This document shows, piece by piece, positions 35,606-60,450 of a stretch of 64,000 nt of DNA. The stretch is taken from the NCBI GenBank assembly GCA_050175015.1, contig JBFXJJ010000008.1, positions 1 to 64,000 of the forward strand, written 5' to 3'. The translations under genes and the position numbers were made by a program. This DNA comes from Alphaproteobacteria bacterium. GTDB lineage: Bacteria > Pseudomonadota > Alphaproteobacteria > JBFXJJ01. The notes below the pieces were generated by a model that saw only the letters and a list, made by a program, of their open reading frames with translations, did no database searches and was not told the DNA's origin. Each line of letters opens with the position of its first letter. Positions within the stretch are counted from its first letter, which is position 1.

Positions 35606-35683
35606 GCACTCGTAGCTCAGTTGGATTAGAGTGTCGGCCTCCGAAGCCGAAGGTCGCAGGTTCGAATCCTGTCGAGTGCGCCA
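35606..35683 (+). tRNA. tRNA-Arg(CCG)
   Basis: GCACTCG/CGAGTGC acceptor stem, TCGGC-CTCCGAA-GCCGA anticodon arm, GGTTCGAATCC T-arm, encoded CCA. Confidence 0.96.
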
Positions 35684-36046: not shown

Positions 36047-37111
36047 ATGGCAACGATTGAAAAAAGAGAAACAGGCAAAGGGCTTCAGTATCGAGTTAAA
36101 GTTCGCAAAAAAGGCTTTCCAGCTCAAACCGCAACATTTTCTCGCTTAACAGATGCTAAGAATTGGGCGAATGAAATTGAAAGTTCTATTGTTAATAACC
36201 GCTATTTTCCAACCAATGAGCTTCGCAAAAGAACGATATCCGATTTAATTGAAAGATATATCAAAGAGGTTTTATCTAAAAAACCAAGACGAGCTTATGA
36301 TGCTGTTCCTAAGCTTCGTTGGTGGCAGGAAAAAATTGGTTTATACACTTTGGCAGATTTAACAACCTCACTTCTTTTCGAAACAAGACAAAAACTTTTT
36401 GATGATGATATTAAAAACGGTAAGAAAAGAAGCAATACAACAGTTAATAAATATGCAACGGCTTTAAATACGGCTTTAAACATTGCGGTTAATGAATTGC
36501 AATGGCTTGAAAATAATCCAATGAATAAGATTAAGAAGTTGAAAGAGCCAAGAGGCAGGGTTCGTTATTTATCAGAAGAAGAAAAAAACTCATTATTGAA
36601 TGCTTGTAAGGAAAGCAAGAATCCGCATTTATTTAATGTTGTTTATCTGGCTTTAAGCACAGGAGCTAGATATGGCGAAATAATCAACTTAAAATGGGAG
36701 CAAATCGATTTTAACCGCAAAGTCATCACTTTATACGAAACTAAAAACGGCGAAATAAGACTTTTGCCTCTGGTGGGCAAGTCTTATGAATTAATGAGAG
36801 AGCATTCTAAGGTTAGAAGAATTGATAGTGATTTGGTTTTTCCAAGTGCGATAAAACCTCAAAAGCCGATTGAAATAAGAAAATCTTGGCTTAACGCTCT
36901 TGAAAAAGCAGGAATTGAAGATTTTAGATTTCACGATTTAAGACATTCAACTGCTTCTTATCTTGCTATGAATGGAGCAACTCTAGCCGAAATTGCAGAG
37001 GTTCTAGGGCATAAGACTTTGGAAATGGTTAAAAGATACTCACATCTATCCGAAGCCCACACCGCAGGCGTTTTAGAACGAATGAATCAAAAGTTTTTAG
37101 GTGAAGATTGA
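36047..37111 (+). CDS. Tyrosine recombinase/integrase
   Basis: TGARYGE (R), TKNG (K), HDLRH, LGH and RYSH catalytic residues; N-terminal arm-binding-like segment. Confidence 0.95.
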   Translation: MATIEKRETGKGLQYRVKVRKKGFPAQTATFSRLTDAKNWANEIESSIVNNRYFPTNELRKRTISDLIERYIKEVLSKKPRRAYDAVPKLRWWQEKIGLYTLADLTTSLLFETRQKLFDDDIKNGKKRSNTTVNKYATALNTALNIAVNELQWLENNPMNKIKKLKEPRGRVRYLSEEEKNSLLNACKESKNPHLFNVVYLALSTGARYGEIINLKWEQIDFNRKVITLYETKNGEIRLLPLVGKSYELMREHSKVRRIDSDLVFPSAIKPQKPIEIRKSWLNALEKAGIEDFRFHDLRHSTASYLAMNGATLAEIAEVLGHKTLEMVKRYSHLSEAHTAGVLERMNQKFLGED

Positions 37112-41608: not shown

Positions 41609-41908
41609 TTAAGCAACCTTGTTGTAAGGAACAATCGCTTCAAGTTCGCTTGCTATCTTTCTTTTGGTTTTGATAAGCTCAAAATCTTCTTGAATGCCTA
41701 AAAAATAGCCTTCGGACAAACCAAAATATTTAGTAAGTCTTAAATCGGTATCTGCGGTTATGCCTCTCTTACCATTGATAATATCGCTAATGCGGTTTTG
41801 AGGTATCCCCAGAGCCTTCGCAAGAGAATTTTGAGATAATCTTAAGGGCTCTATAAACTCTTCCTGTAAGACTTCGCCAATGTGGGGTATGTCGATATAT
41901 TTTTCCAT
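41609..41908 (-). CDS. higA: HigA family antitoxin
   Basis: HIGEVLQEEF..LSQ..LA..L..RIS.IING.RGITADT.LRL motif. Confidence 0.92.
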   Translation of the reverse strand: MEKYIDIPHIGEVLQEEFIEPLRLSQNSLAKALGIPQNRISDIINGKRGITADTDLRLTKYFGLSEGYFLGIQEDFELIKTKRKIASELEAIVPYNKVA

Positions 41909-41978
41909 TTTGATAAACCCTTAAAAATAAAACCTTATTAGTTATATATAATACAGATAACATATAAAGTCAAGATTT

Positions 41979-42260
41979 TTAGTGATAATCAACAATTTCA
42001 ACATTATGAGCGTCTTTGTCCTGCCAAACAAAACATATTCGCCATTTGTCGTTTATTCTGATTGAATGTTGCTCTTTTCTATCGCCTTTCAATGCCTCAA
42101 GATTGTTAGATGGAGGGATTTTTAAGTCCTCAATCCTTTTAGCCCTATTTATCATCGCAAGCTTGATTATAGCTCTTCTTTGAATATCAAAAGGAAGCTT
42201 TTTTGAGGTTTCTCCGTGCCAAATCTTGGCTGTTTCTTTGCATTTAAAAGATACTATCAT
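41979..42260 (-). CDS. higB: HigB family toxin
   Basis: PPSNNLEALKGDR..QHSIRINDKWRICF..VDYH motif. Confidence 0.92.
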   Translation of the reverse strand: MIVSFKCKETAKIWHGETSKKLPFDIQRRAIIKLAMINRAKRIEDLKIPPSNNLEALKGDRKEQHSIRINDKWRICFVWQDKDAHNVEIVDYH

Positions 42261-45200
42261 TTTTTAACATTCTCTACGGCAACAATAACTTCGCTTTTGA
42301 CTTGTTTTGCGTTTTGTTCGATTGCATCAAGATAGTTTTCACCTAATTGTCCTTTTATAAACTCAATTTCTTTAATAAAAGCAGTGATTTCTTTTTCGCT
42401 ACTCTGATTGCCTATTTCCTGAGAAGAAAGTCTCCTTAATGAATATTGAGATAAGGTTTTATATTCTCTTAAATCCTTAATCAAAACTCTTATAAATGAT
42501 GACAAACTGCTAAGCCTATCCTCATAAAAACGTATAGATGCATTAAGATTATTTATAGCTTTAGTTTCAAGTGAGTTTTCGTTGCTTTTATGATGAAATT
42601 TAGGCTTCTTTTCTTTGATGTTTTCGTATGTATCCCAAAACATATCAGAATGTTTGATTTTAGGTTCAGTTTGTTTGCATTCAATATTAGGCAACAGGCT
42701 TTCAATATTTATATCAAAAATATCAGGCTTTTTATCTCCTTCAACCTTTGCTAGTTGAACAAAAAACCCTAACGCTTTTTTTCTAACTACAATGACTTGA
42801 TTTTCTTTAAAGTTTTTAGCCGTCTTAACTCTGTTAGGCAGATATTTAATCTTTTTAAAAATTTCAGGGTATTCTATCCTAATATCCTCAATTTTATTTC
42901 TAATTTTGGTGATGATGCTTTCTTCTTCATTATCTTCAGGGTTTGAATTTATGCGTTTAAAAAGCTCTGAAGCAGAAGGAATTTCATCTTGGGTAAAGAC
43001 TTTTGAATCTTCACCAAGCGTATTATGAATAAGAAACATTTTCTGGCTTGCGATTTCTTTACTTTTTATAACATCAGCACCTTTTAGGGTTGGAAAGAAG
43101 TTGCAGATATAAAGCTCATCAAAAACCTTTTTGCCAATACGGTTAATTCTTCCGATCCTTTGAATAACCCTAGTTGGGTTCCAAGGAATATCATAATTTA
43201 TGATTGTTCCTGCTCGATTTAGATTGAAGCCTTCAGAAAGCTTATCGCTGGCAATAAGAATGGAGTAATTATCTTCCTGTTTGCTTTTAGCAATGCTTGC
43301 ATCAAAATTTTTATAAAGTGTTTCAGCCGTTTTTTTGTTTAAATCACCAGTAAAGGAAAAAACTTTGTTAGGAAAAGCATTTTCAATCGTTTCCTTAAGG
43401 TGAGCAACTGTATCTAAATACTCGGTAAAAACAATAAGTTTGCGGTTTTGCTCTTTTTTTATACTTTCTTTTAAAAAATCAATTAGCTTTGCCCTTTTAG
43501 GATCAGAATTTGCTAAATCAAGATTATCTATTTCTTTTTTTATTTTAGCAAACAAGGCTAAATCACTATCTATATCTTTTAAGAATTGATTTTTATTATA
43601 AAAACTATTGATGTCATAAATTCGGTTATTTTTTGGAGCTTTCTTATCGAGCAGTTCTTCAGCAAATTTTTCTAAGTGTTCTTCAATAGTATCTTCATCT
43701 TCAGAGTAAATTTTATTAATCAGCTTTCTATCAAGAATATATTTGCCATTTGAATTTTCGATAAACTCTTTAATTTTGATATGGGCTTTTTCAAAGTTTT
43801 CAATACTTTTTTTGAACGCTCCAAAAGAGCTTTCAAACCGTTTTACAAGGAGTCTTCTCATAAAGTCATATAAGTTTCTTTGTTGTTGATATTCCCTGTT
43901 ATCATCTTGGTTTAAGTCTTCAAGATTAAGTTTTTTCTCATAGTTAAATGGCTGATAAATTGCCCCTTTAAATTCCCCCACTTCTGCAAAATACTCTTTA
44001 ATGACCTTGTCGTAAAATTCTGATTGCTTTTCGTTTAACTCAAAAAGCAATTCTTGAGGGTCTTTAACCTTTGAAAGTTCTTTAACCTCTGTTCGATATT
44101 GATAATCGTTTTTAAGGTCTATTCGGTTTCTTCTAATTAGAATTGGCTCAATAATCTGCCTGATTTCGTTTGATAGTTCGCTTAAGCGGTTTTTAACTTT
44201 TTTAATATCGGCATATTCTTCTTTAAAAAGCTCAAAATATTGCTTTTTAGATTTGGCAAGTTTTTCAATATCGTTAGAGTTATGATACCTAGAAACATAA
44301 GCAAGTTTGTTAAAAAGGTTTTCATAGCTTTTAAATCTAGCTTCAATGTTATCATCAAGTGTTATTAGAGATTTTCCTGGAACGATAAAAAGTTTAAGGA
44401 GAGAGAATATATCCGCAGGGCTGTTATTAAATGGTGTGGCGGTTAGCAAAATCACAATTTTGTTACGACAAATCATGTTTAAATATTCATAATCTTGCGT
44501 ATCTTGATTGCGGAAACGATGAGCTTCATCAATAACCACAACTTCAATATCCTTACCTTGATTATTCATATATTCAGCAATTTCTTCAAGCTTGCCTGTT
44601 GACCTAACCTCCCAGTCAAAGAGTTCAAAATCACTTTTGTATTTTTGCCAGCCAGCGTTAGCATTAGCATCGCCAATTAGTCCAGGAGGGCAGATAATCA
44701 TTCCTCTTTTGCCAATATTCTTGGCAATGGCACTTGCTATAATCGATTTTCCAAGCCCCACCACATCGGCAATAATAACGCCATTATAGTTTTCGATAAT
44801 GGTTAGGGCTTGATTGACGGCATCAAGCTGATAGGAATAAGTCTTATAGCCCTTATCTTCTAAAATTCTGATGACTTGAGGTTTTATTTTTCTTTGTTCT
44901 TGAAGGTCTAAATAGGTTTTTAAGATATAAGCATACGCTTCAAAAGGCGTAACATTTGCAACTTGAGATTTATTGTTTAGAAAATCGATTAAAAATTGCT
45001 TCCTTGCATTATCTTCAGTAATTTTAACAGAGGTTTCCCAAAGCTCATCAAAGTAGCTTTCTGCATCTTCGGTGCCATAATCAGAAATTTCAACATTAAA
45101 CTCGTTTTGTTTTTCAAGTCCTGCTTTGGTTAGATTGCTAGAGCCCGTAATAAACTTAGTATCAGAAATATGCTTTAACTGGTCATTGATTTTGAAAAGA

Positions 45201-45613
45201 TAAAGTTTTGCATGGTTTGGCTCTAGGGTTTTTCTGATATGAAGCTTATCTTCTAAAATAAGTTTTAAGAAAAATTCTGCTTGTTCAAAAAAGTCTCGGT
45301 TGTCAAGGTCTTCATTGTTAAGGGCTTTGTCTAAAGATGCAAAAAAATCATCAGCTTTTTCGGCATTAGAAACATCAGAATTTGAGCCTGCAAACTCGCA
45401 TATCTTGCCAAGAAAACTATCGACTTCAAGTCCAACTAGAATTTTAACTGTAATGTTATCTTGTTCTTTGAGGCTTTCGTATAATTCTTTAAGTCCTGAG
45501 AAATAGAAAAAACCAACTAAAAACTTAAGCTCTTTGCTGGAGGTAACAAGCTGTTTTATTCTTGTTTTAAGATTTTTGGTATTTTTTTGATTGGTGATGA
45601 AGTTATTGGTCAT
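42257..45613 (-). CDS. PLD-nuclease plus SNF2-type helicase (restriction-like subunit)
   Basis: HAKLY..GSSNLT..EFN (PLD); ADVVGLGKS, DEAH, LTATP, SEGFNL and QRIGRINRIG helicase motifs; start placed at MTNNFITNQ. Confidence 0.88.
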   Translation of the reverse strand: MTNNFITNQKNTKNLKTRIKQLVTSSKELKFLVGFFYFSGLKELYESLKEQDNITVKILVGLEVDSFLGKICEFAGSNSDVSNAEKADDFFASLDKALNNEDLDNRDFFEQAEFFLKLILEDKLHIRKTLEPNHAKLYLFKINDQLKHISDTKFITGSSNLTKAGLEKQNEFNVEISDYGTEDAESYFDELWETSVKITEDNARKQFLIDFLNNKSQVANVTPFEAYAYILKTYLDLQEQRKIKPQVIRILEDKGYKTYSYQLDAVNQALTIIENYNGVIIADVVGLGKSIIASAIAKNIGKRGMIICPPGLIGDANANAGWQKYKSDFELFDWEVRSTGKLEEIAEYMNNQGKDIEVVVIDEAHRFRNQDTQDYEYLNMICRNKIVILLTATPFNNSPADIFSLLKLFIVPGKSLITLDDNIEARFKSYENLFNKLAYVSRYHNSNDIEKLAKSKKQYFELFKEEYADIKKVKNRLSELSNEIRQIIEPILIRRNRIDLKNDYQYRTEVKELSKVKDPQELLFELNEKQSEFYDKVIKEYFAEVGEFKGAIYQPFNYEKKLNLEDLNQDDNREYQQQRNLYDFMRRLLVKRFESSFGAFKKSIENFEKAHIKIKEFIENSNGKYILDRKLINKIYSEDEDTIEEHLEKFAEELLDKKAPKNNRIYDINSFYNKNQFLKDIDSDLALFAKIKKEIDNLDLANSDPKRAKLIDFLKESIKKEQNRKLIVFTEYLDTVAHLKETIENAFPNKVFSFTGDLNKKTAETLYKNFDASIAKSKQEDNYSILIASDKLSEGFNLNRAGTIINYDIPWNPTRVIQRIGRINRIGKKVFDELYICNFFPTLKGADVIKSKEIASQKMFLIHNTLGEDSKVFTQDEIPSASELFKRINSNPEDNEEESIITKIRNKIEDIRIEYPEIFKKIKYLPNRVKTAKNFKENQVIVVRKKALGFFVQLAKVEGDKKPDIFDINIESLLPNIECKQTEPKIKHSDMFWDTYENIKEKKPKFHHKSNENSLETKAINNLNASIRFYEDRLSSLSSFIRVLIKDLREYKTLSQYSLRRLSSQEIGNQSSEKEITAFIKEIEFIKGQLGENYLDAIEQNAKQVKSEVIVAVENVKK
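45574..45605. repeat. Direct repeat copy at the helicase 5' end (partner at 47071-47102)
   Basis: 31/32 identity to 47071-47102. Confidence 0.9.
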
Positions 45614-47060
45614 TGTCTTTTGCTCGTTGAATTTTGGGGAAGTGTTTATCAATTCCTAATGTCTGATATATGATTGTTTTTAAAACCAAATCTAATCTGT
45701 TTGATAGCATACTTAAAGCTTCCCAGTTTAATGTTTCATTTTTAAAATAAAAAGTGGTGGATATTTCAGAAGAAGATAACTTTCTAGGTCTACCGTTTTT
45801 ATATGGGTGCGTGATAAGGTTTCTAATAAGAGAAACTTGTTTTTTAATATATTCTTTATAACCATATTCAGGAAATTCTTCAGGATAAAGAGTACGTTTT
45901 ATCATGCTTTTATGCCAGTCTCCACATAATCCCCCATAAATAAAAATGGTTTCAAAATTATCATTATTTATAAGCTCTAGCCCATTTTTAACATCAACGC
46001 CTGATTTGTTTTTTTTATGTTCAATGTTGCCGATAACTTCTAAAGCTTGAATTTGTGAAATAAGGTAAGTATCTAAAAAATTGTTTTCTTTGCTTAAAAT
46101 TGTAACGATTAAAAATCTTAACTTATTAAAATTATCAAACCATTTTTGCATAACAGCTTTTAAAGCATTTTTTATATCATCATAAGGAATATCTAAATCT
46201 AAATAAACGTAATCTTTTTCGTTTTTAATATTTGGGTTTATAAAATAATAATCATAGCCATTACAATATTTTTTAATCTCTAAATTTTGATTGCATAACA
46301 AGGAGAAAAAAGCATTTATCTTAAAAATAGTTTGCTTATAAAAATCTAAAGATTGCTCTTCTTCTGTTTCAACACGAATGTAGGTGTCGTTATAAAAACG
46401 GCTTTCAAGAATATTTTCATAAGAAATACCACTCTTTGAGAATATTGTTATAAAGCATTTAGCATTATCTATGATAATATCAAATTTATTAACTTCCCTT
46501 GGAATATTGATTTTTAAAAATTCTGCATTATCACTGCTTGTTTTGTTTGATTCAGAATTTAAATATTCTAGTCTAAAATATTTACCAAGCCATAAAAATT
46601 TATCAAGATTATCTATATAAACATCTAAACTTTTAATTTTATCATCTTTTTTTAAAAACTTATCTTTTTTAGGTTTTTTGTATATTTTTGCTAGTATTTT
46701 TTTTTCAGAATCATCTTCTATATTTGCTAAAACGCTATCTATTTTAGGGTGATGATATACTTCTTTTAAATAAAATTTTTCAAAATTTATATCTGTTTTT
46801 TCCCCACCTGTTGTTGAGGAATTGATAAAGGTAAAATAAAAAAGCTGGTTTGAATAAGATGCCGAATTATTTCTAAAAACACCAAATAATTCAGCCCCGC
46901 CAAAACCATAGCGGCATAATTTTTTAACATCTGTTTCGTTTAAGGTTAGTCTTGGCTCGCCGTCCTTAAATATCAAGATTGCAGATATTTTCTTTTTTGT
47001 TATTTTTTTTGGGAATGGTTCATAAACAAAACCTTCGTAAATTCCATTTAAATCAACCAT
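45603..47060 (-). CDS. ApeA-like HEPN domain protein
   Basis: C-terminal RNLITH (RxxxxH) preceded by QALEV; beta-rich N-terminal region; size fits ApeA-like proteins. Confidence 0.65.
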   Translation of the reverse strand: MVDLNGIYEGFVYEPFPKKITKKKISAILIFKDGEPRLTLNETDVKKLCRYGFGGAELFGVFRNNSASYSNQLFYFTFINSSTTGGEKTDINFEKFYLKEVYHHPKIDSVLANIEDDSEKKILAKIYKKPKKDKFLKKDDKIKSLDVYIDNLDKFLWLGKYFRLEYLNSESNKTSSDNAEFLKINIPREVNKFDIIIDNAKCFITIFSKSGISYENILESRFYNDTYIRVETEEEQSLDFYKQTIFKINAFFSLLCNQNLEIKKYCNGYDYYFINPNIKNEKDYVYLDLDIPYDDIKNALKAVMQKWFDNFNKLRFLIVTILSKENNFLDTYLISQIQALEVIGNIEHKKNKSGVDVKNGLELINNDNFETIFIYGGLCGDWHKSMIKRTLYPEEFPEYGYKEYIKKQVSLIRNLITHPYKNGRPRKLSSSEISTTFYFKNETLNWEALSMLSNRLDLVLKTIIYQTLGIDKHFPKIQRAKDNDQ

Positions 47061-47070
47061 TTTTACACAC

Positions 47071-47102
47071 TTTTGGCATTTTTTTGATTGGTGATGAAGT
47101 TA
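47071..47102. repeat. Direct repeat copy within the chimeric junction mini-ORF (MTNFITNQKNAKSV*, 47107-47063)
   Basis: 31/32 identity to 45574-45605; continues into a synonymous variant of the MTase 3' end. Confidence 0.9.
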
Positions 47103-48836
47103 GTCATATTTTAAATCTATTTTAATTCCTAATAATTTTTCTGTATCGCTATTATCGGTCAGTTTAAGAATTATGTTATCATTAATTAGTTTTTGTTTTT
47201 CTCCGTCACTTATTTCAGTAATGTCATCAATCTGATTTTGGTTAAGAGTAAGTATGTATTGTTTGTTATGAGTATTAAAAAGATTGTTAGCTTCAGATAA
47301 CATAGAAATTTTTTGTCTTGGGTCAATATCACTAAAAAGACGATTGTCATGAAATAAAAAATCTATTTTATGCCTGCTTCCCATAAACAATAAGGTTAAA
47401 TCATAACAAAATATTTTAGCACTTCCTATTCCGTCAGAGGAATCACTTTCAATTTTTGCGTCAAAATCATATCTTAATTGATTAGTTCCGCTATTGTTTT
47501 TAACAGTAATTCCTGATGTTGCATCAGGGTATATTTTTTTAGCCAGCCTTCTAAAAAAGCCGTCCATATTTTTATCAGAGTTTTCCTCTGTTGAGTTAAG
47601 ATAATCAACTGTTTTCTGTTCTTCTTCAACAAACTGTTTCTTTATATTAAGCTCTTTATTTTCATACTCTTTTAATAAGCTTTCATATTTTAAATAATCA
47701 TTTTTTTGATTCTTTTTATCGCTAAGTTTGTTGTTCAGTTTTAAAACCACATCAACCGCATTATGAGCATTAAGATATTGCAATTTCTGGTCTAATTTTT
47801 TCTCCCAATCTTTTTTGTCATTATTAAAAGCTGTCAGATTGTTTTGAATAGCCAGTTTTTGTTCGGCAAGCCTTTTGGCTCTGTTTGATAACAATTGCTT
47901 ATTAAAAACTTCTAACTCATCTAAGGTTTTAGATAAATTGTTACTAAAAATTATCCGAGCTTCTTCATATATTGACGTTATTTTTTCTTTGCTTAAGTCT
48001 GGAGTGTTTTTTAGGCTTTGCTCAATGTTTTTTATTTGATATGAGCTTGTAGCAATTTGATTGTTGATATTATCTAATTGTTGCTTTATTTGATTCGCTT
48101 CCTGCTCTGTTTGGTAATAATCTTCAGCAACTTTTGTTTCATTAAGTTTATGCTCTAACTCTTTTATTTCTTCTTCCAAATTTTTCTTTGCAAGCCCAAG
48201 GTCTTTAGAGCCAATAAAAAATTCTTTTAATACAGGGTCTTTTTTTATCTGCTTGGTTAAATTGTTTATATTATCTAAATCTTTCTTTAGCATCTTTTTT
48301 GTTTGAATAAGTCCAACATCTAATCCCAACAGAAAAGCATTGTTTAGCAATTTTTGATATTCTGTTCCTTTCTTTCTACCGTCAGGATCAGCAAAATTAG
48401 AATACGCACCCTTAGTTCTTCTTATAAAAAAGGGGATTAAAGTTCTAAAAGTTAGATATTGAATTCCAGATGGAATTTCAAAACAAAGCTTTTGCATTTT
48501 TTTATTAAAATTATCAACCGACAACTCTTCTTTATTCATAAAAATTTTATTATAGTTATCTATAGCACGTTCAACTTTATAATTTTCTCCAGCTATTTCA
48601 AATTCAAGATAAAAAATCCAATTAACGAGTTTTTCTAGAAAATTACCTTGAGGCGTTGCACCTAAGCAAAAATGAATTATCTCTATCATCAAAGATTTAC
48701 CAACACCATTATAGGTTTTATCTTTTGATTCGTTGGAGGTATCTTTTTTGCAGGCAACAATAATATTTAAACCCGTTTTTTTAAACTCAACAGTTTTAAA
48801 GGTATCTTTGTTTGCTGATAACGAAATTAAACGCAT
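47100..48836 (-). CDS. lmuB: Lamassu/ABC-3C SMC-like ATPase (LmuB, DUF2326)
   Basis: Walker A NGVGKS, long coiled coil, SSDG signature, FLFHD Walker B, DPRQ. Confidence 0.85.
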   Translation of the reverse strand: MRLISLSANKDTFKTVEFKKTGLNIIVACKKDTSNESKDKTYNGVGKSLMIEIIHFCLGATPQGNFLEKLVNWIFYLEFEIAGENYKVERAIDNYNKIFMNKEELSVDNFNKKMQKLCFEIPSGIQYLTFRTLIPFFIRRTKGAYSNFADPDGRKKGTEYQKLLNNAFLLGLDVGLIQTKKMLKKDLDNINNLTKQIKKDPVLKEFFIGSKDLGLAKKNLEEEIKELEHKLNETKVAEDYYQTEQEANQIKQQLDNINNQIATSSYQIKNIEQSLKNTPDLSKEKITSIYEEARIIFSNNLSKTLDELEVFNKQLLSNRAKRLAEQKLAIQNNLTAFNNDKKDWEKKLDQKLQYLNAHNAVDVVLKLNNKLSDKKNQKNDYLKYESLLKEYENKELNIKKQFVEEEQKTVDYLNSTEENSDKNMDGFFRRLAKKIYPDATSGITVKNNSGTNQLRYDFDAKIESDSSDGIGSAKIFCYDLTLLFMGSRHKIDFLFHDNRLFSDIDPRQKISMLSEANNLFNTHNKQYILTLNQNQIDDITEISDGEKQKLINDNIILKLTDNSDTEKLLGIKIDLKYD

Positions 48837-49069
48837 TTGCTTATTATTCCTTGTTTTTCTTCAATAACGCCAATCGAAAAAAGAAAAACTATAGTTAAAA
48901 TCAAATTGTCGAAACTATGCTTGGCGAAGTAGTTTCCGCTTTTAAAATCAAATTGATATTTTTTCCATAAATCGTCAATGGTTTTAGGTGTTTTGAGCTC
49001 TTCAATGAGATAACTACCTAAACCGAGTAGGGACTGTGAAAAATTCAAATGTTTTTTTGGTATAAGCAT
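48827..49069 (-). CDS. lmuC: Lamassu/ABC-3C middle component (LmuC)
   Basis: MLIPKKH...SLLGLG...SFDNLIL..LFSIG; 80 aa, between effector and ATPase. Confidence 0.8.
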   Translation of the reverse strand: MLIPKKHLNFSQSLLGLGSYLIEELKTPKTIDDLWKKYQFDFKSGNYFAKHSFDNLILTIVFLFSIGVIEEKQGIISKCV

Positions 49070-49071
49070 AA

Positions 49072-50007
49072 TTACTCTTCTGGTTCTTCAAAAATATCGC
49101 AGCTTTCAAAATATTTTGCCATAATTTGAATAGCCGCTGGTTGATATACATTGTTACTTTTAGGACATATATTTTCTAAAATCCCAAAAAATATATTATC
49201 ACCTATGTTGTTTTTATCAATCATTTCATTTTCGAATTTAAGTTTGTTTTGTTGATAAATATCGCTTAAGGTTTTTTTTGTTTCTTCCGCTAATATGCTT
49301 TCTCTTTCCTCAAAAAACTTGTCTATTTGACCTATTGCAGAATAGGCGTTATCTAGCAAATTTTTTACGTCTAGGCTGATATTATTAATTTTGATTTTTT
49401 TATTCCAATCAGGGGCGATTAATTTGTCATCTAAAATCGTTTTAACGGGGATTTGTGCGATATGGTTTATTACTTCATCAAGAATAGAGTTATTAAGAAT
49501 GTGCATTTTTGAAGGGTCTGGCAAATACCCTACAACATCTAACATTTGTTCTTCTGTTAAATCATTAAAAACCATATTTCCTAAATCTTTTGCTGTTAAA
49601 AAGCTACATTCTTTTAGGTTGTTAGTTGTTTTAATGATTCCAATTTTTATCAAACCGTCAGCATTAACACCCTTATATTTATCATTAACAACAAAAAAGA
49701 AATTCTCTATCGGCGACCAATATTTTTTCAATCCGTCAAAATCTGTTTCTAGTTTATTTATCGCTTCAGGATATGATTTGGTTATGTCTTCAGGAGCATA
49801 AACTTGATAATAGGTTGCTGTTTTTGTGTTGCAACCATCATTCTTTCGGTCTCCAATATTGCCCCAAGGTTTAAGTTGTTGGAAATCAGAATCTCTATAA
49901 TTCATAATTTTGGTAAATATTTTTTCAAACTCACTGCCATCAGATTCATAAATTTTGTTTTGAAAAATTTTAATAGCATAAGCTTTTTCTTGAGGAGTCA
50001 TATTCAT
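49072..50007 (-). CDS. lmuA: Lamassu/ABC-3C effector (LmuA) with nuclease-like N-terminus
   Basis: FEKIF...GDRKNDG...YQVYAP PD-(D/E)XK-like motif; C-terminal YFESCDIFE. Confidence 0.8.
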   Translation of the reverse strand: MNMTPQEKAYAIKIFQNKIYESDGSEFEKIFTKIMNYRDSDFQQLKPWGNIGDRKNDGCNTKTATYYQVYAPEDITKSYPEAINKLETDFDGLKKYWSPIENFFFVVNDKYKGVNADGLIKIGIIKTTNNLKECSFLTAKDLGNMVFNDLTEEQMLDVVGYLPDPSKMHILNNSILDEVINHIAQIPVKTILDDKLIAPDWNKKIKINNISLDVKNLLDNAYSAIGQIDKFFEERESILAEETKKTLSDIYQQNKLKFENEMIDKNNIGDNIFFGILENICPKSNNVYQPAAIQIMAKYFESCDIFEEPEE

Positions 50008-50016
50008 TATTCCTTA

Positions 50017-53000
50017 CTAAACACTCTTGGCTTTGGAGATGCGGTTATAGACAAGCTGGCAGACGGAGCGGTAAACTTCTTTTCGTTCATCTATAGTTAG
50101 CCCTATAGCATCAAAAACAATGTCATCAAGTTCTTTTCTATCGGCAAGAGGTTTTGGCTCTTGCTCTTCAATTGGAATATCGCTTTTAGGGTCAATCCCA
50201 CATTCTTCGAAAATGTTTTTGATTTCTCGGTTGAATAAATTGTTTGTATTTAATTTAGAAAAATTAACACAATCATCTTTTAGTAAGATAAAATTATTTA
50301 AATCGGGCTTTTGAGTTTTGAGAACTCCTCCACCAAAATTTGACCTTCCATATAGTTCTCTAAATAAGTTGGTTGTTGTGGAATTTAAAAATAAAAGGGT
50401 GTTTATTTTGTTAGTTTTACAAACTGTAATTTCGAAGAAATTATCACCAACCAATCTATCGCTATTTAAAAAAGCAATATTTCTATCATTATGGGCTATA
50501 ATCCAAAGAATTTCTGCTTCTTTTCTATCGCCTAAAAAATACCATAACTTACGATTTTTTACGGTTTCAATGTTATGAAATCCTGTTAGCTTTTTCCCTT
50601 TATCTTTACCTTGTTTGATTTCTATTTCTGCGATTTCTCCCCATTTGATATATTTTAAGGCGTTCGTTCCTTGTAGTTCAGTTTTAGATTTATCACATAA
50701 AAAAAGAAAACCTTTTGGTTTGATTTTTGAAACATCAATTTTTTTAAGCTCATTGGTTTTCATTGTTGCGGGTTTTAAAAACTCTTCTTCAATGCCCCAT
50801 TCTTTGGCTTGGGTATCCGTTAAATAGAAAAATTCATTACAGCCTGTTGTTATGCCTCTTCTTACTTCGGCAACATCTTTTAATTTGACTAGCTTATCTT
50901 TGCCTTTTTCTAAAATGGTAAAGAAAATATCGGGGGCTCTTAAATATTTTCCACCCCATTTATCGCCGATATATTTGTTTTCATCAACGCCTGCTTCATA
51001 TAATTCATCATAGTTTATGCTATAAACCCTAAAGGAACCAGTTTTTAAAATGCCGTTAGTGTTTTCAATTTCAAGCAGGTTTTCAGTTACAACCACTTCT
51101 TCAAAAGGTTTTTTAAAGGCAACAAATTTAACTTTTTTATCTTTCTTTTGAAACTTATCTTCTGGGGCAGAAAAAATAGAAATTATGGTATTAACATCAG
51201 CGTTGGCAAAGCTTCGTTTAACCTGATTATCAATAATATAGTGCATCTCTACATTGTTTAGCAAAAACTCCTGAAGCCAAGCACCATAACCGACATCAAG
51301 CCAAGAGTTAGAGCAAACAAAACAATGTATGCCTTTGGGGTTTAAAATTCTTAAAGTATGTAAGTAAAAATAAACATATAAATCAGACTTTTTATCGGTT
51401 TTGGTTTTGGCTTTAAAATAACTTGGGTAATCAACCTTAACCGTTTGTTCCAACAAGTCCTTGTAATCTTTGTTGTCTTTTACCAAGCCATTAGGGTCGC
51501 TTATTTCCTCTTGCCTGACATAAGGCGGGTTGCCGATGATTATATCAAATCCGCCTTTTTCACCAAAAATCTCTGCAAACTCAATGTTCCAGACCAGCGG
51601 GTGATTGTCGGTTAGATTTTTAGCTTCTTCTTGTAATAAGGCTATTTCCTCTCTTAATTGCTCTTTTTCTTTTTCTAGTGAGGCAGAATTTTCTTTTTTT
51701 GTTTTTTCCCCAAATTCAATTAAACTTCCCTGTTTGGAGTAAGTTTTCATATACTCATTTAGCTTTTCTTTTTTGTTTGTTATTTCATCATGGAGCAAAT
51801 CTAAAAAAAGGTTTTTTTCCATATTTCTTATAGAGTGAATATCTACGCCGTTTTTGTTATTAAAAAAATCGATTTTAGCATTTTTCAGCTTGGTAACTTT
51901 GGCTTTTATGCTTTGAGAAATGCTCGCGTGTCCTTGTATTGGAAAAAGCTTGCCTCCAATTCTCTGCACCAATGAATCCCCACATCTAACCTTAAAGTTA
52001 AGGCTTGGAAGGAGCGGTTCAAAAGAAGTGTTTTTATCCTCTGGCATATCAATAAATAATGACAGCCAAAGCCTTAATTGGTTTATCCAAACTGCCCAGC
52101 GTTTAACCTCAACGCCGTATAAGGATTTTGCAATGATTTCCTTTTTGCGGTCAAAGGCGGAATAGTTTTTATATTCATCAGGGCAGTTGTTTCTGGTTTG
52201 CAGGCTTCCTAAAAGCTCATCTAAAACCTGCATCATGCCAACTTCAAAAGCACCCGAGCCTGCGGCTGGGTCGCATATTGTTATATTTTGCAAAAGCTCA
52301 ATTAGTCCTTTGATTTCTTTGGCGGTAAAATCGCCTTGCTTTTGGCATTCGTCAAACTCTTTATCAACACCCATTTCTCTAAAAATAAAATGATATAGGT
52401 CTTGTTTCGTGCAATTAGAGTTTTTCTCAAGCCATTTAACCAGCGATAACCTGCACATTAAATCAACTTCAGTTCTTGGGGTATAAACCGCACCATCTTT
52501 TTTATTAACTAATCTTTCAAAGATAATTCCTAAAAATTCAGGGTTTAGTTCAAGCTCTTCATCATAATTAGTGTTTTCTTCAATCGTAAAATTATATTGA
52601 AACAAAAACTCAAAAAAGGCTTCAATCTCTTTGTCAGGGATATAAGCCGAAGCTAAATCGACCCCTGTTTTTTGCTTAAATAATTCACCATTTAAAAAAG
52701 GTGCCATTTGCAAGGTTTTCTGCGTTTTTTCAGAAAAATCATTGTTGCGGTATTTAACTTGCGTTCCTGGAGTGCTGTTCAAAGCTTCAAAAAACAATGG
52801 TTCTAACCAGTTTTTATAAAACTTATTATCACCATTAAACTTTGCTTTATATTCTAACCAGAAATTTTGCAAAAATTCTTGGTCTCCGCCAAGCCAGCCT
52901 CTTTTCTGCACAAAGCCGATAAATATGGTTCTAATCACAAAGAGCAGGGCAAAATCTTCTTTAGTTGAGGTATCTTCAATTTCTTTAACGCTTTTGGCAA

Positions 53001-53550
53001 TTTGTTCAAACTTGGGCTTAAATTCGTTATAAAACTCGTTGGTTACGGCATCGATTGAAAAGGCTTTTAATATATTGGTTATAGAAGAAAAGTCAGCCTT
53101 GCCGATTTGGGTTCTAAAAGTTTTGTTGGGCTTTTTCGGGTCAATAAAATAGGTGTATCGTTTATAATTGCCAAATTCTCTTTTTTTGCCTGCATAATGA
53201 ACATTGATAAAGCTGAATCTTGCTTTGCCCTCGTTATCTGTAAATACAAAGATACCTGCATCATAAAAGCCTTCTTTAATGGCTTTTTTAGCAATGTCAT
53301 ATTGTGCTTTTTTACTGCTACGCTCGGAAAGCCCTTTTTCTAATTCTCCAAGCAAAACAATGAGTTTTGAGCCTGTTCCAAATTCTATTTCACCTAACTT
53401 TTTTAATGATGAGCAAAAGGAATCTTCATCAATATGATGCGGAAGGTCTTCTTCTTGCGGTGTAAAAAAATCAGATTTTGAACGCAAAAAAGAAACAATC
53501 GTTTCTTTAGACACTTGATTTATAAGCTTTTCAATCGGATTTGGGGACAT
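50017..53550 (-). CDS. Eco57I/type IIG-like N6-adenine DNA methyltransferase with target-recognition domain
   Basis: GAVYTP, DPAAGSGAF (motif I) and IIGNPPY (motif IV); start placed at MSPNP. Confidence 0.9.
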   Translation of the reverse strand: MSPNPIEKLINQVSKETIVSFLRSKSDFFTPQEEDLPHHIDEDSFCSSLKKLGEIEFGTGSKLIVLLGELEKGLSERSSKKAQYDIAKKAIKEGFYDAGIFVFTDNEGKARFSFINVHYAGKKREFGNYKRYTYFIDPKKPNKTFRTQIGKADFSSITNILKAFSIDAVTNEFYNEFKPKFEQIAKSVKEIEDTSTKEDFALLFVIRTIFIGFVQKRGWLGGDQEFLQNFWLEYKAKFNGDNKFYKNWLEPLFFEALNSTPGTQVKYRNNDFSEKTQKTLQMAPFLNGELFKQKTGVDLASAYIPDKEIEAFFEFLFQYNFTIEENTNYDEELELNPEFLGIIFERLVNKKDGAVYTPRTEVDLMCRLSLVKWLEKNSNCTKQDLYHFIFREMGVDKEFDECQKQGDFTAKEIKGLIELLQNITICDPAAGSGAFEVGMMQVLDELLGSLQTRNNCPDEYKNYSAFDRKKEIIAKSLYGVEVKRWAVWINQLRLWLSLFIDMPEDKNTSFEPLLPSLNFKVRCGDSLVQRIGGKLFPIQGHASISQSIKAKVTKLKNAKIDFFNNKNGVDIHSIRNMEKNLFLDLLHDEITNKKEKLNEYMKTYSKQGSLIEFGEKTKKENSASLEKEKEQLREEIALLQEEAKNLTDNHPLVWNIEFAEIFGEKGGFDIIIGNPPYVRQEEISDPNGLVKDNKDYKDLLEQTVKVDYPSYFKAKTKTDKKSDLYVYFYLHTLRILNPKGIHCFVCSNSWLDVGYGAWLQEFLLNNVEMHYIIDNQVKRSFANADVNTIISIFSAPEDKFQKKDKKVKFVAFKKPFEEVVVTENLLEIENTNGILKTGSFRVYSINYDELYEAGVDENKYIGDKWGGKYLRAPDIFFTILEKGKDKLVKLKDVAEVRRGITTGCNEFFYLTDTQAKEWGIEEEFLKPATMKTNELKKIDVSKIKPKGFLFLCDKSKTELQGTNALKYIKWGEIAEIEIKQGKDKGKKLTGFHNIETVKNRKLWYFLGDRKEAEILWIIAHNDRNIAFLNSDRLVGDNFFEITVCKTNKINTLLFLNSTTTNLFRELYGRSNFGGGVLKTQKPDLNNFILLKDDCVNFSKLNTNNLFNREIKNIFEECGIDPKSDIPIEEQEPKPLADRKELDDIVFDAIGLTIDERKEVYRSVCQLVYNRISKAKSV

Positions 53551-53563
53551 TTGCAAATTGCCT

Positions 53564-54586
53564 TTATTTCTTTCTAATAGGTTTGAAAGTTTTGTTTTCA
53601 TTAATTAGGGCTATAATTTCATCAATGTTTTTAATGCTATTAATTGTAAGTTCACAACATTCAACACCATAAAATTTTTGCACGCTTTCTGAAAGGTCTT
53701 CAACCTCATGCTGTTTTATTTTTTGTTTTGCCTGACCCGACGGCATAGTAATAACTAACCTGACCTTTTTCTTTCTCATATAAAGATAAGCAAAATTCTT
53801 TTTGTTATGTTGAATTGAAACATAATATTTTTGAGGATTAATTTTTATATCGGTTATTGAATTTTTAATGGTTTCATAAATTTCTTTAACCTGATTTTCA
53901 ACCCCTTCTAAATGAAATTCTTCGGTATAAGTTTTTTTAAGGTTGTTTGGCTCATCATCTTCAGCTTCTTCAATGTTTGTTTCAACCATTTCTATGACTT
54001 CAAAGTCTGGCTCTGATGTAAAAATAACTTCGCCGTTGTTATGAAATTCTTTGATTATCATAATTTTAACCATTTTATCCCAAGTGTCGGTATAGGTCGC
54101 CATTATTTCGGGAAGCTCTGGTTTTTTCTCATCTATAACAAGCAAAATATTCTGGGAATCTTCAACAATGTCCTTTATGCCTTTATAAAGTTCGTTGGTG
54201 CCAATATATTCAATGAATTCGCTCTTCAATTCTGAATCTGTATTTACAATAATAAATATTTTCTCTATTAAATCTGTTCTACTTGAAGAGTTTTTGAAAA
54301 AAGCAAAAAACTTAGTAACTTGAGGAAAGATATGATTAAAAAAAGAGTGTCCTACAAGCTCAAATTCAACCAAATAAAAATCGGGGCTTTCTGGCTTAGT
54401 AAAATCGAACAAAAAACCATCTGGTATTGATTTTCCTAATTCTTGAGTTGCTATTTTCTTTTTTGGTATGTAAACAGTCTTTTCACCAAAAAGAAGTTTG
54501 TAATTATCAAGAAGAGTATTCTCGTAATCACTTTCTTTGCTGTATTTTTTCTCTAAAAACCGCTTTCCCTTATAAAATAAACTCAT
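53564..54586 (-). CDS. PD-(D/E)XK (NucS-like) plus DUF5655-like protein, first gene of the RM-like operon
   Basis: IPDGFLFD..YLVEFEL motif; C-terminal YTEEFHL..QKYYV..FA. Confidence 0.6.
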   Translation of the reverse strand: MSLFYKGKRFLEKKYSKESDYENTLLDNYKLLFGEKTVYIPKKKIATQELGKSIPDGFLFDFTKPESPDFYLVEFELVGHSFFNHIFPQVTKFFAFFKNSSSRTDLIEKIFIIVNTDSELKSEFIEYIGTNELYKGIKDIVEDSQNILLVIDEKKPELPEIMATYTDTWDKMVKIMIIKEFHNNGEVIFTSEPDFEVIEMVETNIEEAEDDEPNNLKKTYTEEFHLEGVENQVKEIYETIKNSITDIKINPQKYYVSIQHNKKNFAYLYMRKKKVRLVITMPSGQAKQKIKQHEVEDLSESVQKFYGVECCELTINSIKNIDEIIALINENKTFKPIRKK

Positions 54587-58920: not shown

Positions 58921-60450
58921 TCACATACCCATACCGAAGCCATAGCTTTTGGATTTTTTTAAGGCAAGTTCTTTTTCTTCTAGGTGTTCTTTATAACTTT
59001 TTTGCATTTTTTGATAAAACTCATTGTTGGTTTTGAGGGTTTCTTTAATGGCTTTGTAAGTTTCATCATCTTTTTTAAGCTCGGGTTTTAGCTCTTTCAT
59101 CATTGCATCAATGGTTTTGCTTTTGGCTCGCTCGGCATTGAGCGTATCAGATATTTTATCATAAACAAAAGAAGGGATAATAACATTGCCGCCAAGTTCT
59201 TCAATGGCAACAACCTTTGGAACTGCATCTTTGCCATCTTCAAGATAATAGAATTTGTTTTCATTGTCATACTTAGCAAGGCTTTTAATCGCTTCTTGTG
59301 CTTCTGGTTTTTGAGGCATTTCAACATAAAAAATGGCTTTTTGTTTTTCTTCAGGTTTAACTTCGAGTTTTATTTCTGGTTTATGGGGTTCTGTTATGTG
59401 TCTGCTGGTTTTGCCAGTATTAAGAAACAAGGCGTTTATTAGTTTTTTCTGAGCAACAATAATTGCCATTGCAAATGGATCTTTTAAGGCTTCAGCCATT
59501 AAAAAATCTTTCCAAGTGTAAAAGGTTTTTTTGAGCAAGGATTGCTCTTTTGGCTTCTTTTTAACGGCTTGGTATTTCTGCCATAAAATAGGCGTGTTAG
59601 GGTGTTTGGTAAGTGGCTTTTCGGTATAGGTTCTTTTGGGTTCAACAATATTTTTTGATTCCTCAAATTTACCTAATCTTTTTTCCAAGGAGTTTTTAGA
59701 AAAACTCCTGTCTAAATCAGATGCTTTAATTGCAACTTTTTCATCTTTAGAAACTATCGCTAAACCGTTGCCTCTTTTTTTAAGAAGCAAACCAGCTTCT
59801 TCAAAAACATTATGTAAATCTTGCCATTTTTGGGCTTGGTTTAATGCTTTGGTTAAGGGTTCTTTTTGCTCTTTAACATAAGAATAAAAGCTTTGTTGCC
59901 AAGTTTTAGCCTCAAAATCTCTGGCTTTCTCGTGAGGTTTTTCATAATTTGGCTCTTTGGTTTTTTCAATACCGTTATCCGTTTTAAGATTATATTTCTT
60001 CTCCATATCTCGGCATACTTTTGAGCGTTTGTAATAATCGTTTGATAAGGTCGCAACGTTGAAAGTTTCAGGGTTTATTTTGTTATAGGCAATATGCATA
60101 TGAAAGTTATCGGTGTTTTGATGCGTGCCGACAACTCTTTGATGGGTTTCTATCCCTAAGGCTTTGGCAAACTCGCATTCAATTGCTTTTAAGGTTTTTA
60201 AATCAGGTTTTTCATCTTTAAAAGAAACTAATAAGTGATAGGTTTTATCAACTTTGCATCTGGTGTTTTTGCTTTGAGTGTTTTCAATATCAATAATGGC
60301 TAAATCTAAATCATCAATGGTTTCGCCAGCAATTGAGTTTACTATCCAAAAATCAGATAGTTTTTCGCCTTCGTCTTCTGCACCTGCAATATATTTAGCA
60401 AGCCTTCTAAAACTGCTCTTTGTTGTTCTTGGAATATGCTTAGAAATCAT
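58921..60450 (-). CDS. MOBP-family conjugative relaxase
   Basis: RLAKYI (catalytic Tyr), YHLLVSF and HQNTDNFHMHI (HUH) motifs. Confidence 0.9.
   Translation of the reverse strand: MISKHIPRTTKSSFRRLAKYIAGAEDEGEKLSDFWIVNSIAGETIDDLDLAIIDIENTQSKNTRCKVDKTYHLLVSFKDEKPDLKTLKAIECEFAKALGIETHQRVVGTHQNTDNFHMHIAYNKINPETFNVATLSNDYYKRSKVCRDMEKKYNLKTDNGIEKTKEPNYEKPHEKARDFEAKTWQQSFYSYVKEQKEPLTKALNQAQKWQDLHNVFEEAGLLLKKRGNGLAIVSKDEKVAIKASDLDRSFSKNSLEKRLGKFEESKNIVEPKRTYTEKPLTKHPNTPILWQKYQAVKKKPKEQSLLKKTFYTWKDFLMAEALKDPFAMAIIVAQKKLINALFLNTGKTSRHITEPHKPEIKLEVKPEEKQKAIFYVEMPQKPEAQEAIKSLAKYDNENKFYYLEDGKDAVPKVVAIEELGGNVIIPSFVYDKISDTLNAERAKSKTIDAMMKELKPELKKDDETYKAIKETLKTNNEFYQKMQKSYKEHLEEKELALKKSKSYGFGMGM

Follow-up and report, generated by a model that had tools for sequence, protein, structure and literature searches.

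The window examined here, the first 64,000 nucleotides (nt) of contig JBFXJJ010000008.1 from the alphaproteobacterial assembly GCA_050175015.1, contains an integrative, mobilisable element that adjoins a tRNA-Arg gene (35606-35683) and carries several toxin-antitoxin pairs. Within it, the minus strand reads, in order, a DUF5655 gene, a DNA methyltransferase (MTase), an ABC-3C trio, an ApeA-like HEPN gene, a helicase, HigB and a helix-turn-helix (HTH) antitoxin (Table 1). The MTase and the helicase form a restriction-like core pair, and the trio and the HEPN gene lie between them as two cargos, so that there are three junctions, which we call J1 (MTase end), J2 (between the cargos) and J3 (helicase start). 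Our main subject is J2, a 45-nt sequence that appears to be a helicase start joined to an MTase end, and thus a scar of the event that stacked the two defence modules in one operon.

Table 1 Features of the locus and its surroundings (positions in the 64,000-nt window; aa, amino acids; ORF, open reading frame; CTD, C-terminal domain)
Feature	Position	Strand	Remarks
Tyrosine integrase	36047-37111		beside tRNA-Arg
MobA/VirD2 relaxase	58921-60450		
DUF5655 protein	53564-54586	minus	
N6-adenine DNA methyltransferase (MTase)	50017..53601	minus	Eco57I/MmeI-type, 1194 aa, first core gene
ABC-3C effector with CTD10	49072..50007	minus	311 aa; second in-frame ATG at 50001
ABC-3C middle component MC6	48827..49069	minus	80 aa; Pfam MC6 47.3 bits, cut-off 27.2
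ABC-3C SMC-like ABC ATPase	47100..48836	minus	578 aa; DUF2326; PDC-M68B; distantly LmuB-like
ApeA-like HEPN protein	45603..47060	minus	485 aa; RNLITH (Rx4H) motif
PLD(HKD)-SNF2 helicase-nuclease	42257..45613	minus	1118 aa, second core gene
J1, MTase 3' end	50017..50049	minus	YNRISKAKSV-stop; MTase stop 50019-50017
J2, 14-codon mini-ORF	47063..47107	minus	MTNFITNQKNAKSV-stop; 30-nt helicase head + 15-nt MTase tail
J3, helicase gene start	45575..45613	minus	MTNNFITNQKNTK; overlaps last 11 nt of ApeA-like ORF
Direct repeat copy 1, J3 side	45565..45605		41 nt
Direct repeat copy 2, J2 side	47062..47102		36/41 to copy 1, spacing 1497 nt

The core pair is assigned by profile matches: the MTase to Eco57I (1.8e-31) and MmeI_Mtase (2.4e-09) in Pfam and to REase_MTase_IIG (6.4e-46) and DrmMI (2.5e-23) in PADLOC, and the helicase to PLDc_2 (residues 36-192), SNF2-rel_dom, Helicase_C and ResIII in Pfam and to DrmD (1.3e-34) and 'HKD+Snf2' (6e-27) in PADLOC. 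The first cargo is a complete ABC-3C set, a name that we take from the Pfam descriptions, with ATPase, middle component and CTD effector encoded by three adjacent, overlapping genes, all scoring above the Pfam cut-offs. The effector reaches 55.4 bits with CTD10 (cut-off 28.1) and matches PDC-M68A in PADLOC, and the ATPase matches DUF2326 (4.3e-33, 114.4 bits) and, in PADLOC, PDC-M68B. The initial annotation had named this cargo Lamassu and its ATPase gene lmuB. It is Lamassu-like, in that LmuB models match the ATPase at 9e-10 to 1e-05, but since PDC-M68B matches the same protein at 9.5e-90, and the LmuA model of PADLOC finds no match, this is probably not canonical Lamassu; Lamassu is a loose label and ABC-3C/PDC-M68 the tested one. 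The second cargo protein scores 36.7 bits with ApeA_NTD1 of Pfam (cut-off 25.5) and 1.2e-06 with Cas13-ApeA of PADLOC, and its HEPN Rx4-6H motif is found as RNFIIH in the homologue P0122. Judged by its sequence, it combines the N-terminal domain and the C-terminal HEPN motif of ApeA and is a predicted nuclease. Its family is very small: an exhaustive search returned 22 cluster representatives at E<=1e-3 among 1.84 billion, with one non-self match below 1e-30, and a word-based search gave one homologue, at 32% identity. The GC content is 0.26-0.29 over both cargos, compared with 0.31-0.34 in the core genes.

Direct reading confirmed the sequences that the initial annotation had given for the three junctions, as well as the form that it had described for both cargos, namely an MTase tail, the cargo and a helicase head, with stop and start codons that abut or overlap. 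The ATG of J2 lies 4 nt ahead of the stop codon of the ABC ATPase (47102-47100) and its TAA lies 2 nt ahead of the ApeA-like ATG (47060), while the helicase ATG (45613) precedes the ApeA-like stop (45605-45603); both cargo strings terminate at a TAA lying out of frame inside the first four helicase codons. By blastn against the whole 2.5-Mb assembly, J2 and J3 match at 31/32 nt (E 2e-9) and the repeat has no further significant copy; its longest exact stretch is 25 nt. Aligned locally to the 4403-nt interval between the core genes, the 45-nt helicase head scores 31, which is reached by 0/200 shuffles, and, once one in-frame 3-nt gap is allowed for, J2 opens with 30 nt that match J3 at 30/30 positions. 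Beyond this point the two sequences part, with the divergence rising from 0/30 to 5/15 at the proposed joint (Fisher p 0.0025). Four of the five changed bases are the MTase base, and the last 15 nt of J2 agree with the MTase end at 12/15 positions, with AKSV-stop kept, versus 10/15 for the helicase continuation; the three differences between J1 and J2 all fall on third codon positions. This tail is the best match to the MTase tail in the 4.4-kb interval and directly abuts the head remnant. The switch falls where the head, AATACCAAAAATCTT, and the tail, AAAGCCAAGAGTGTT, agree at 11/15 positions and have a CCAA core in common; the microhomology at the joint reads CCAAAA.

The 10/15 match to the helicase continuation, found in an A-rich sequence of low complexity over whose surrounding interval the tail match is not significant by itself, would also be compatible with J2 being a decayed partial duplicate of the helicase start, made by slippage or a target-type duplication when the HEPN gene was inserted, with its likeness to the MTase due to chance. 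However, decay does not readily account for the abrupt step in divergence right at the joint nor for the bias of the changed bases towards the MTase. When decay of the J3 continuation by five substitutions was simulated 200,000 times, a fraction of 8.6e-4 reached 12/15 to J1 and only 1.5e-5 did so and also gave AKSV-stop. The natural termini of the two genes in related loci, where AKSV- or ARSV-stop recurs as a conserved MTase terminus, argue in the same direction, and we regard a decayed duplicate as improbable.

These related loci came from metagenomes and number 80, the best of 552 confirmed. Both genes lie on one strand in 64 of the 80, with the MTase first in 20 and the helicase first in 44, and the pair abuts or overlaps in 47 of these 64. 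The helicase family is very large, with 6741 of the 8000 scored proteins at E<=1e-30 (best non-self match 62% identity), and in a 40-member alignment the N-terminus reads M...FITN with F5, T7 and N8 invariant. MTase termini were read in those loci with the MTase upstream in which the protein aligns to its end. They include VWNRLNKAKSV-stop with a 0-nt gap to the helicase (L019), DRISRARSV-stop with 6 nt (L043), ERISRARSVRRNG-stop and ERISKARSVKQNG-stop with an 8-nt overlap (L017 and L023, respectively) and NRISKAQNK-stop with 10 nt (L004), and in all five loci the helicase begins M..(N)FITN; the same tail type is also present in L005 and L007. AKSV-stop can therefore be taken as the natural MTase end of the family and FITN as the natural helicase start, so that J2 is a genuine chimera of head and tail. 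The weight of the tail match derives from its position directly against the head remnant and from the terminus that the relatives share. With the head identity, the bias of the tail and the conserved termini pointing the same way, the chimeric nature of J2, as the initial annotation had proposed it, is well supported at the level of sequence. Searches with the helicase elsewhere gave one distant archaeal locus in reference genomes (27% identity), four distant matches in a plasmid collection (29-42% identity), and 20 loci in viral contigs, one of them above 50% identity; among 61 genomes (G000 and 60 of the same class), matches were confined to G000 and one distant one.

As the source is a metagenome bin, and run X1, which may be the source sample, is a landfill metagenome, J2 could in principle be an assembly chimera of two co-existing strains. 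Logan contigs are built with the same 31-letter word size as the Logan index. The longest exact J2/J3 repeat, at 25 nt, is shorter than these words, and a separately built Logan contig of 12,564 nt from run X1 covers 44900-50400 with 0 differences at an even depth of 12, although it is not fully independent because it derives from the same reads. In the Logan contigs of three runs, which cannot show rare circles or deletions, no credible joint or loose end at J1-J3 was present among those listed. The single listed joint, 45860>46634 (side 21, 85% likeness), looks like cross-matching. An assembly artefact is thus extremely unlikely.

Two shorter similarities in the same region carry less meaning. 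The 9-nt word AATATGACT at 50004-49996 recurs at 47110-47102, flanking the ABC-3C trio, and was considered as a target duplication; since 2% of 2000 shuffles equal it, we regard it as possible microhomology only. A 20-nt exact match (E 1.3e-4) links 47096-47115 of the window to C5:67524-67543 of the same genome, the former at the ATPase end and the beginning of J2, the latter in the start region of a DEAD-box helicase gene on the chromosome (MTNFASLGLPE...); it is probably due to chance in AT-rich sequence.

To place the two cargos in context, the interval between the core genes was tabulated in the related loci. The pair lies more than 250 nt apart in 17/64 co-oriented loci (8/20 with the MTase first and 9/44 with the helicase first), and the inserts differ in content, so that gene content between the pair is variable, in line with the exchangeable slot suggested initially. 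According to Pfam, the inserts include a PIN toxin (L005), SIR2 and HerA followed by an AbiEii pair, and thus two systems in one slot (L011), two AlbA_2/Schlafen-like proteins with DUF4062 (L016), Fic/Doc (L021), RhuM-Fic (L037), a YhcG/DUF1016 nuclease (L029), NYN (L030), Bro-N (L039), PDDEXK_3 (L083) and an IS200-like Y1 transposase (L075). In L011, L016 and L040 the cargos overlap the stops or starts of the core genes. The slot is a genuine, recurrent cargo site.

Three of the relatives show further details in or beside this interval. In L011 (3321-8756), SIR2-HerA (476 and 730 aa) and the AbiEii pair (267 and 283 aa) overlap the core genes with stops or starts at both outer borders and are separated from each other by a 159-nt spacer. 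In L009 (1893-2779), the insert between MTase and helicase encodes a 201-aa ORF with no Pfam match and is bounded by an 11-nt inverted repeat, GACCCGAAAGG ... CCTTTCGGGTC. In L081 (9488-13595), where the helicase comes first, two genes directly follow the MTase, one HEPN_AbiU2-like (218 aa) and one for a protein of 1169 aa that has no Pfam match.

Following the suggestion of the initial annotation that further head/tail junctions be sought in homologous loci, we scanned the 18 loci with a gap of more than 200 nt for remnants, each against its own head and tail. Clear matches were found in L007 and L075. In L007, a second copy of the MTase tail (23/27; KAKGVKKR-stop against KAKSAKKR-stop) ends 6 nt before the cargo ATG, and a 13-nt exact prefix of the helicase head, ATGGCTAAAAACT, stands 23 nt past the MTase stop, a length reached by 0/500 shuffles. 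This prefix corresponds to another allele type, as in L011. The order is therefore tail, head', about 125 nt, tail', cargo and helicase, and on its sequence L007 can be read as the architecture of J2 with an empty first module. The 158 nt from the first MTase stop to the second tail copy (L007:646-803) also contain repeated TTGTAAG/CTTACAT words. In L075, which has the opposite gene order, the Y1 transposase is flanked by duplicated copies of a junction composed of helicase tail, hairpin and MTase head. Both transposase flanks (L075:13396-14122) carry the hairpin CAGTTCAC..GTGAACTG, much like a REP/RAYT-type insertion that copied the junction.

Weaker hits of the scan, with a tail score of 20 in L021, scores of 14 (head) and 17 (tail) in L040 and a head score of 16 in L011, were judged on inspection to be low-complexity or in-gene coincidences; L063 gave a head score of 16 (p ~0.01). 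A repeat of the search with all 75 helicase heads, on 7 loci and with L011, L016 and L066 left out, found nothing above shuffles.

The initial annotation had offered two mechanisms for the growth of the array, homology-facilitated illegitimate recombination (HFIR) between sister elements and site-specific recombination at a motif shared by the junctions. The former agrees with the data presented here; the latter fares poorly. The 15-bp motif TAACNNCATCWCCAA does occur exactly at J1, J2 and J3 and nowhere else in the 64-kb window, in one codon phase, although it was defined post hoc from these three sites, and the copies at J2 and J3 amount to one repeat. The MTase tail and the helicase head of the window also agree in phase at 12/15 positions, which is unusual (p 0.007 by codon shuffles). 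From these observations, one could imagine a dedicated integron-like cassette system recombining at the motif, perhaps by way of the tyrosine integrase of the element. However, none of 7 related loci has such DNA similarity between tail and head (best 15-mers 9-11/15, at other positions, p 0.16-0.99), so that the conservation of the motif envisaged in the initial annotation was not borne out (0/7). The joint of J2 is out of register with the motif, one turn further on, and no attC-like pair is seen at the junctions, none of the 25 longest inverted repeats listed for 42000-54000 lying at J1, J2 or J3. Finally, the borders of the cargos vary between related loci, and the sole integrase, part of the tRNA-Arg end, is separated from J3 by 9 kb and six other ORFs. 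Taken together, we find a dedicated site-specific system very improbable.

At the peptide level, the MTase end (N-R-I-S-K-A-K-S; 50020-50049) resembles the helicase start (N-F-I-T-N-x-K; 45584-45613) across the family. This likeness, which is mirrored in the DNA in this window alone, is possibly due to chance.

We think it probable that the stacked array originated in a microhomology-associated illegitimate join of two diverged, cargo-bearing versions of the operon, that is, by HFIR. The core is a two-gene restriction-modification-like module, an N6-adenine MTase followed by a PLD-nuclease/SNF2-helicase, and the short gap between the two genes is a recurrent landing place for accessory defence genes. 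One parent would have had the order MTase-ABC3C-helicase, and the other, somewhat diverged, the order MTase-ApeA-helicase with the ApeA-like HEPN gene as cargo. One illegitimate crossover would have joined the opening ~30 nt of the helicase gene from one parent to the closing ~15 nt of the MTase gene from the other, at the microhomology patch with the CCAA core. A homologous crossover elsewhere in the common flank would have completed the exchange and given MTase-ABC3C-(head'/tail')-ApeA-helicase, J2 being the scar. Wherever the paired copies differ, the change is synonymous or in frame, which fits two diverged functional parent operons rather than decay after a local duplication. The start of J2 overlaps the upstream stop and its own stop lies just before the next ATG, so that the chain of closely coupled ORFs is unbroken. 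Later recombination within the 25-nt exact repeat of J2 and J3 could delete the HEPN gene and leave MTase-ABC3C-helicase. As the initial annotation had foreseen, and as far as can be read from the sequence, this product would retain an intact helicase gene, one codon shorter, with the head MTNFITNQKNTK. The anatomy of the locus, the chimeric make-up of J2, the conserved termini, the variable slot of the relatives and the second head'/tail' case in L007 are direct observations, whereas we infer that two parents were involved, that HFIR joined them, that the genes are transcribed together with coupled translation, and that the stacking is reversible. Promoter and terminator scans were uninformative on expression because the whole-scan counts do not differ from those of shuffles: no terminator-like site was found at J1-J3 and promoter-like sites were not enriched.

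Several observations weigh against this history. The two parents are deduced from 45 nt because the 80 relatives include no parent locus, none of them carrying the window's own cargos, ABC-3C and ApeA-like, and because the rarity of the ApeA-like family prevents the tracing of a donor. The match of J2 to the MTase tail, taken alone, is weak over the whole interval (score 11, shuffle p ~0.48). The likeness of tail and head in the window speaks against a purely random join, since such a model does not predict it. Finally, L011, with its two stacked systems, has no head or tail remnant between them, and L005 has none either, which makes scars the exception and not the rule.

Two further routes to the same arrangement were weighed against HFIR. 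In the first, which involves no dedicated recombinase, a segment consisting of tail, ApeA-like gene and head loops out of a donor operon by microhomology between tail and head, and the resulting circle integrates in a RecA-dependent manner into the 25-30 nt of a resident helicase head, J2 being the joint of the circle. This gives exactly the order head', tail', cargo and head, with the 31/32-nt repeat of J2 and J3 as the product of the integrating crossover and as a substrate for re-excision. It depends on an illegitimate excision followed by recombination over ~25 nt, both rare, where HFIR needs a single event, and the 3-nt indel between the heads of J2 and J3 argues for two alleles instead of one crossover in a single head; contigs, which cannot reveal rare forms, contain no circle or empty-site joint. 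We therefore hold the circle to be an unlikely route. In the second, a local tandem duplication of tail, cargo and head in one operon is followed by replacement of one cargo copy. The joint of such a duplication has the head-to-tail order of J2, but the two cargos have only chance-level repeats in common and no mutual similarity, the flanks left for a later replacement are just 15 and 30 nt, and the copies differ by synonymous or in-frame changes of the kind typical of alleles. Such a duplication appears very unlikely to us. Returning to the join of two operons, the mechanism most likely is ordinary recombination and not new cassette machinery.

One could also speculate, beyond the single event, that the conserved terminal codons at the methylase end and the helicase start provide mobile homology arms and also adaptors for translational coupling. 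Modules of tail, cargo and head would then travel between members of this very widespread family, stack with head/tail joints such as J2 and the remnants in L007, and drop out via the repeated heads, amounting to a cassette array that is embedded in an operon and free of recombinases. We regard this extension as rather doubtful; if true, it would be a distinct way for defence islands to grow and shuffle.

The closest counterparts to the proposed mechanism are found in arrays of conflict genes. Growth by HFIR has been proposed, in the relevant passages of Kirchberger et al. 2017 (PMC5361080), for T6SS (type VI secretion system) immunity arrays of V. cholerae and for Rhs orphan arrays. In those passages, as at the present locus, conflict genes of T6SS and Rhs-CDI (contact-dependent inhibition) arrays accumulate beside a conserved gene, the proposed mechanism combining a homologous anchor on one side with an illegitimate end on the other; remnants of the displaced conserved gene end persist from cargo to cargo, and an integrase plays no part. 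Two features of these arrays are seen here directly: a remnant of a flanking gene between cargos (J2 and L007), and a joint at short microhomology (11/15 with the CCAA core). The present array differs from them in its frame, a restriction-like MTase and helicase, in having whole anti-phage systems as cargo, in that nothing is displaced and the core genes are intact, and in a scar that joins the termini of two different core genes.

With respect to the cargo, the closest parallels are restriction and BREX loci. According to the pertinent section of a review (PMC12707154), classic cases of embedded accessory defence genes are PrrC, from the type IC EcoprrI locus, and BrxU, from a BREX island, and Rakesh & Krishnan 2026 (PMC12839542) describe, in the corresponding part, BREX and BREX-related loci that embed 'backup effectors', namely HEPN, Schlafen, PIN and OLD-ABC modules. 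The window resembles these in that a methylation-based defence operon encloses a predicted HEPN RNase and an ABC-ATPase module, in the same orientation and with little space between the genes, and the classes of accessory genes in the slot of the relatives are those embedded in restriction and BREX loci. The passages concerned in PMC12707154 and PMC12839542 describe embedding and not its origin, and the main text of PMC12839542 never uses the word 'recombination' (0 occurrences). Our search of the literature, which was short of a full review, found no account of such scars in restriction-like operons.

The core pair itself is similar to the Type-2 BREX-related (DUF499-centred) systems, which likewise combine an N6-MTase with a helicase that has an N-terminal HKD/PLD nuclease on a Swi2/Snf2 core. 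DUF3780 is present in 98% of taxa with these systems, according to the section on them in PMC12839542. Here, by contrast, the pair is bare, with no DUF499 ATPase or DUF3780 gene alongside: a Pfam scan of 17 ORFs from 36047 to 60450, and of 8 flanking genes in six relatives, gave a match to neither domain. Class 1 DISARM was also considered and rejected, as the NCBIfam model DrmD scores 154.9 bits against a cut-off of 610 and no DrmA or DrmB (DUF1998) lies beside the pair. Like integron cassettes, the cargos are co-oriented and apparently promoterless in what would be one expression slot, and the head/tail joint resembles that of a circular cassette. Unlike integrons, there is no intI or attI here, no attC-like imperfect inverted repeat lies at the junctions among those listed, the joints vary between loci, and the flanks are the coding termini of two functional genes.

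How defence genes enter restriction, BREX and BREX-related operons is rarely visible, and the 45-nt scar records one such event at base-pair resolution. What is new is this base-level scar, together with a second example in L007, showing the stacking of defence modules in a restriction-like operon. Such scars point to ordinary homologous and illegitimate recombination between related operons, and not to a special recombinase. If the pattern is common, the termini of this abundant pair (>6,700 helicase homologues) might offer a handle for computational searches for new embedded defence genes. The arrangement also raises the question of whether the HEPN and ABC-3C modules act as a backup or guard of the restriction pair, as PrrC does for EcoprrI.

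Downstream of the array, 3' of the helicase, the HigB/HTH pair (41609-42260) has near-identical copies in the same genome at C20:19066-19713 and C20:2523-2810, with amino-acid identities of 96.8% for HigB and of 94.9% and 93.8% for the HTH protein.

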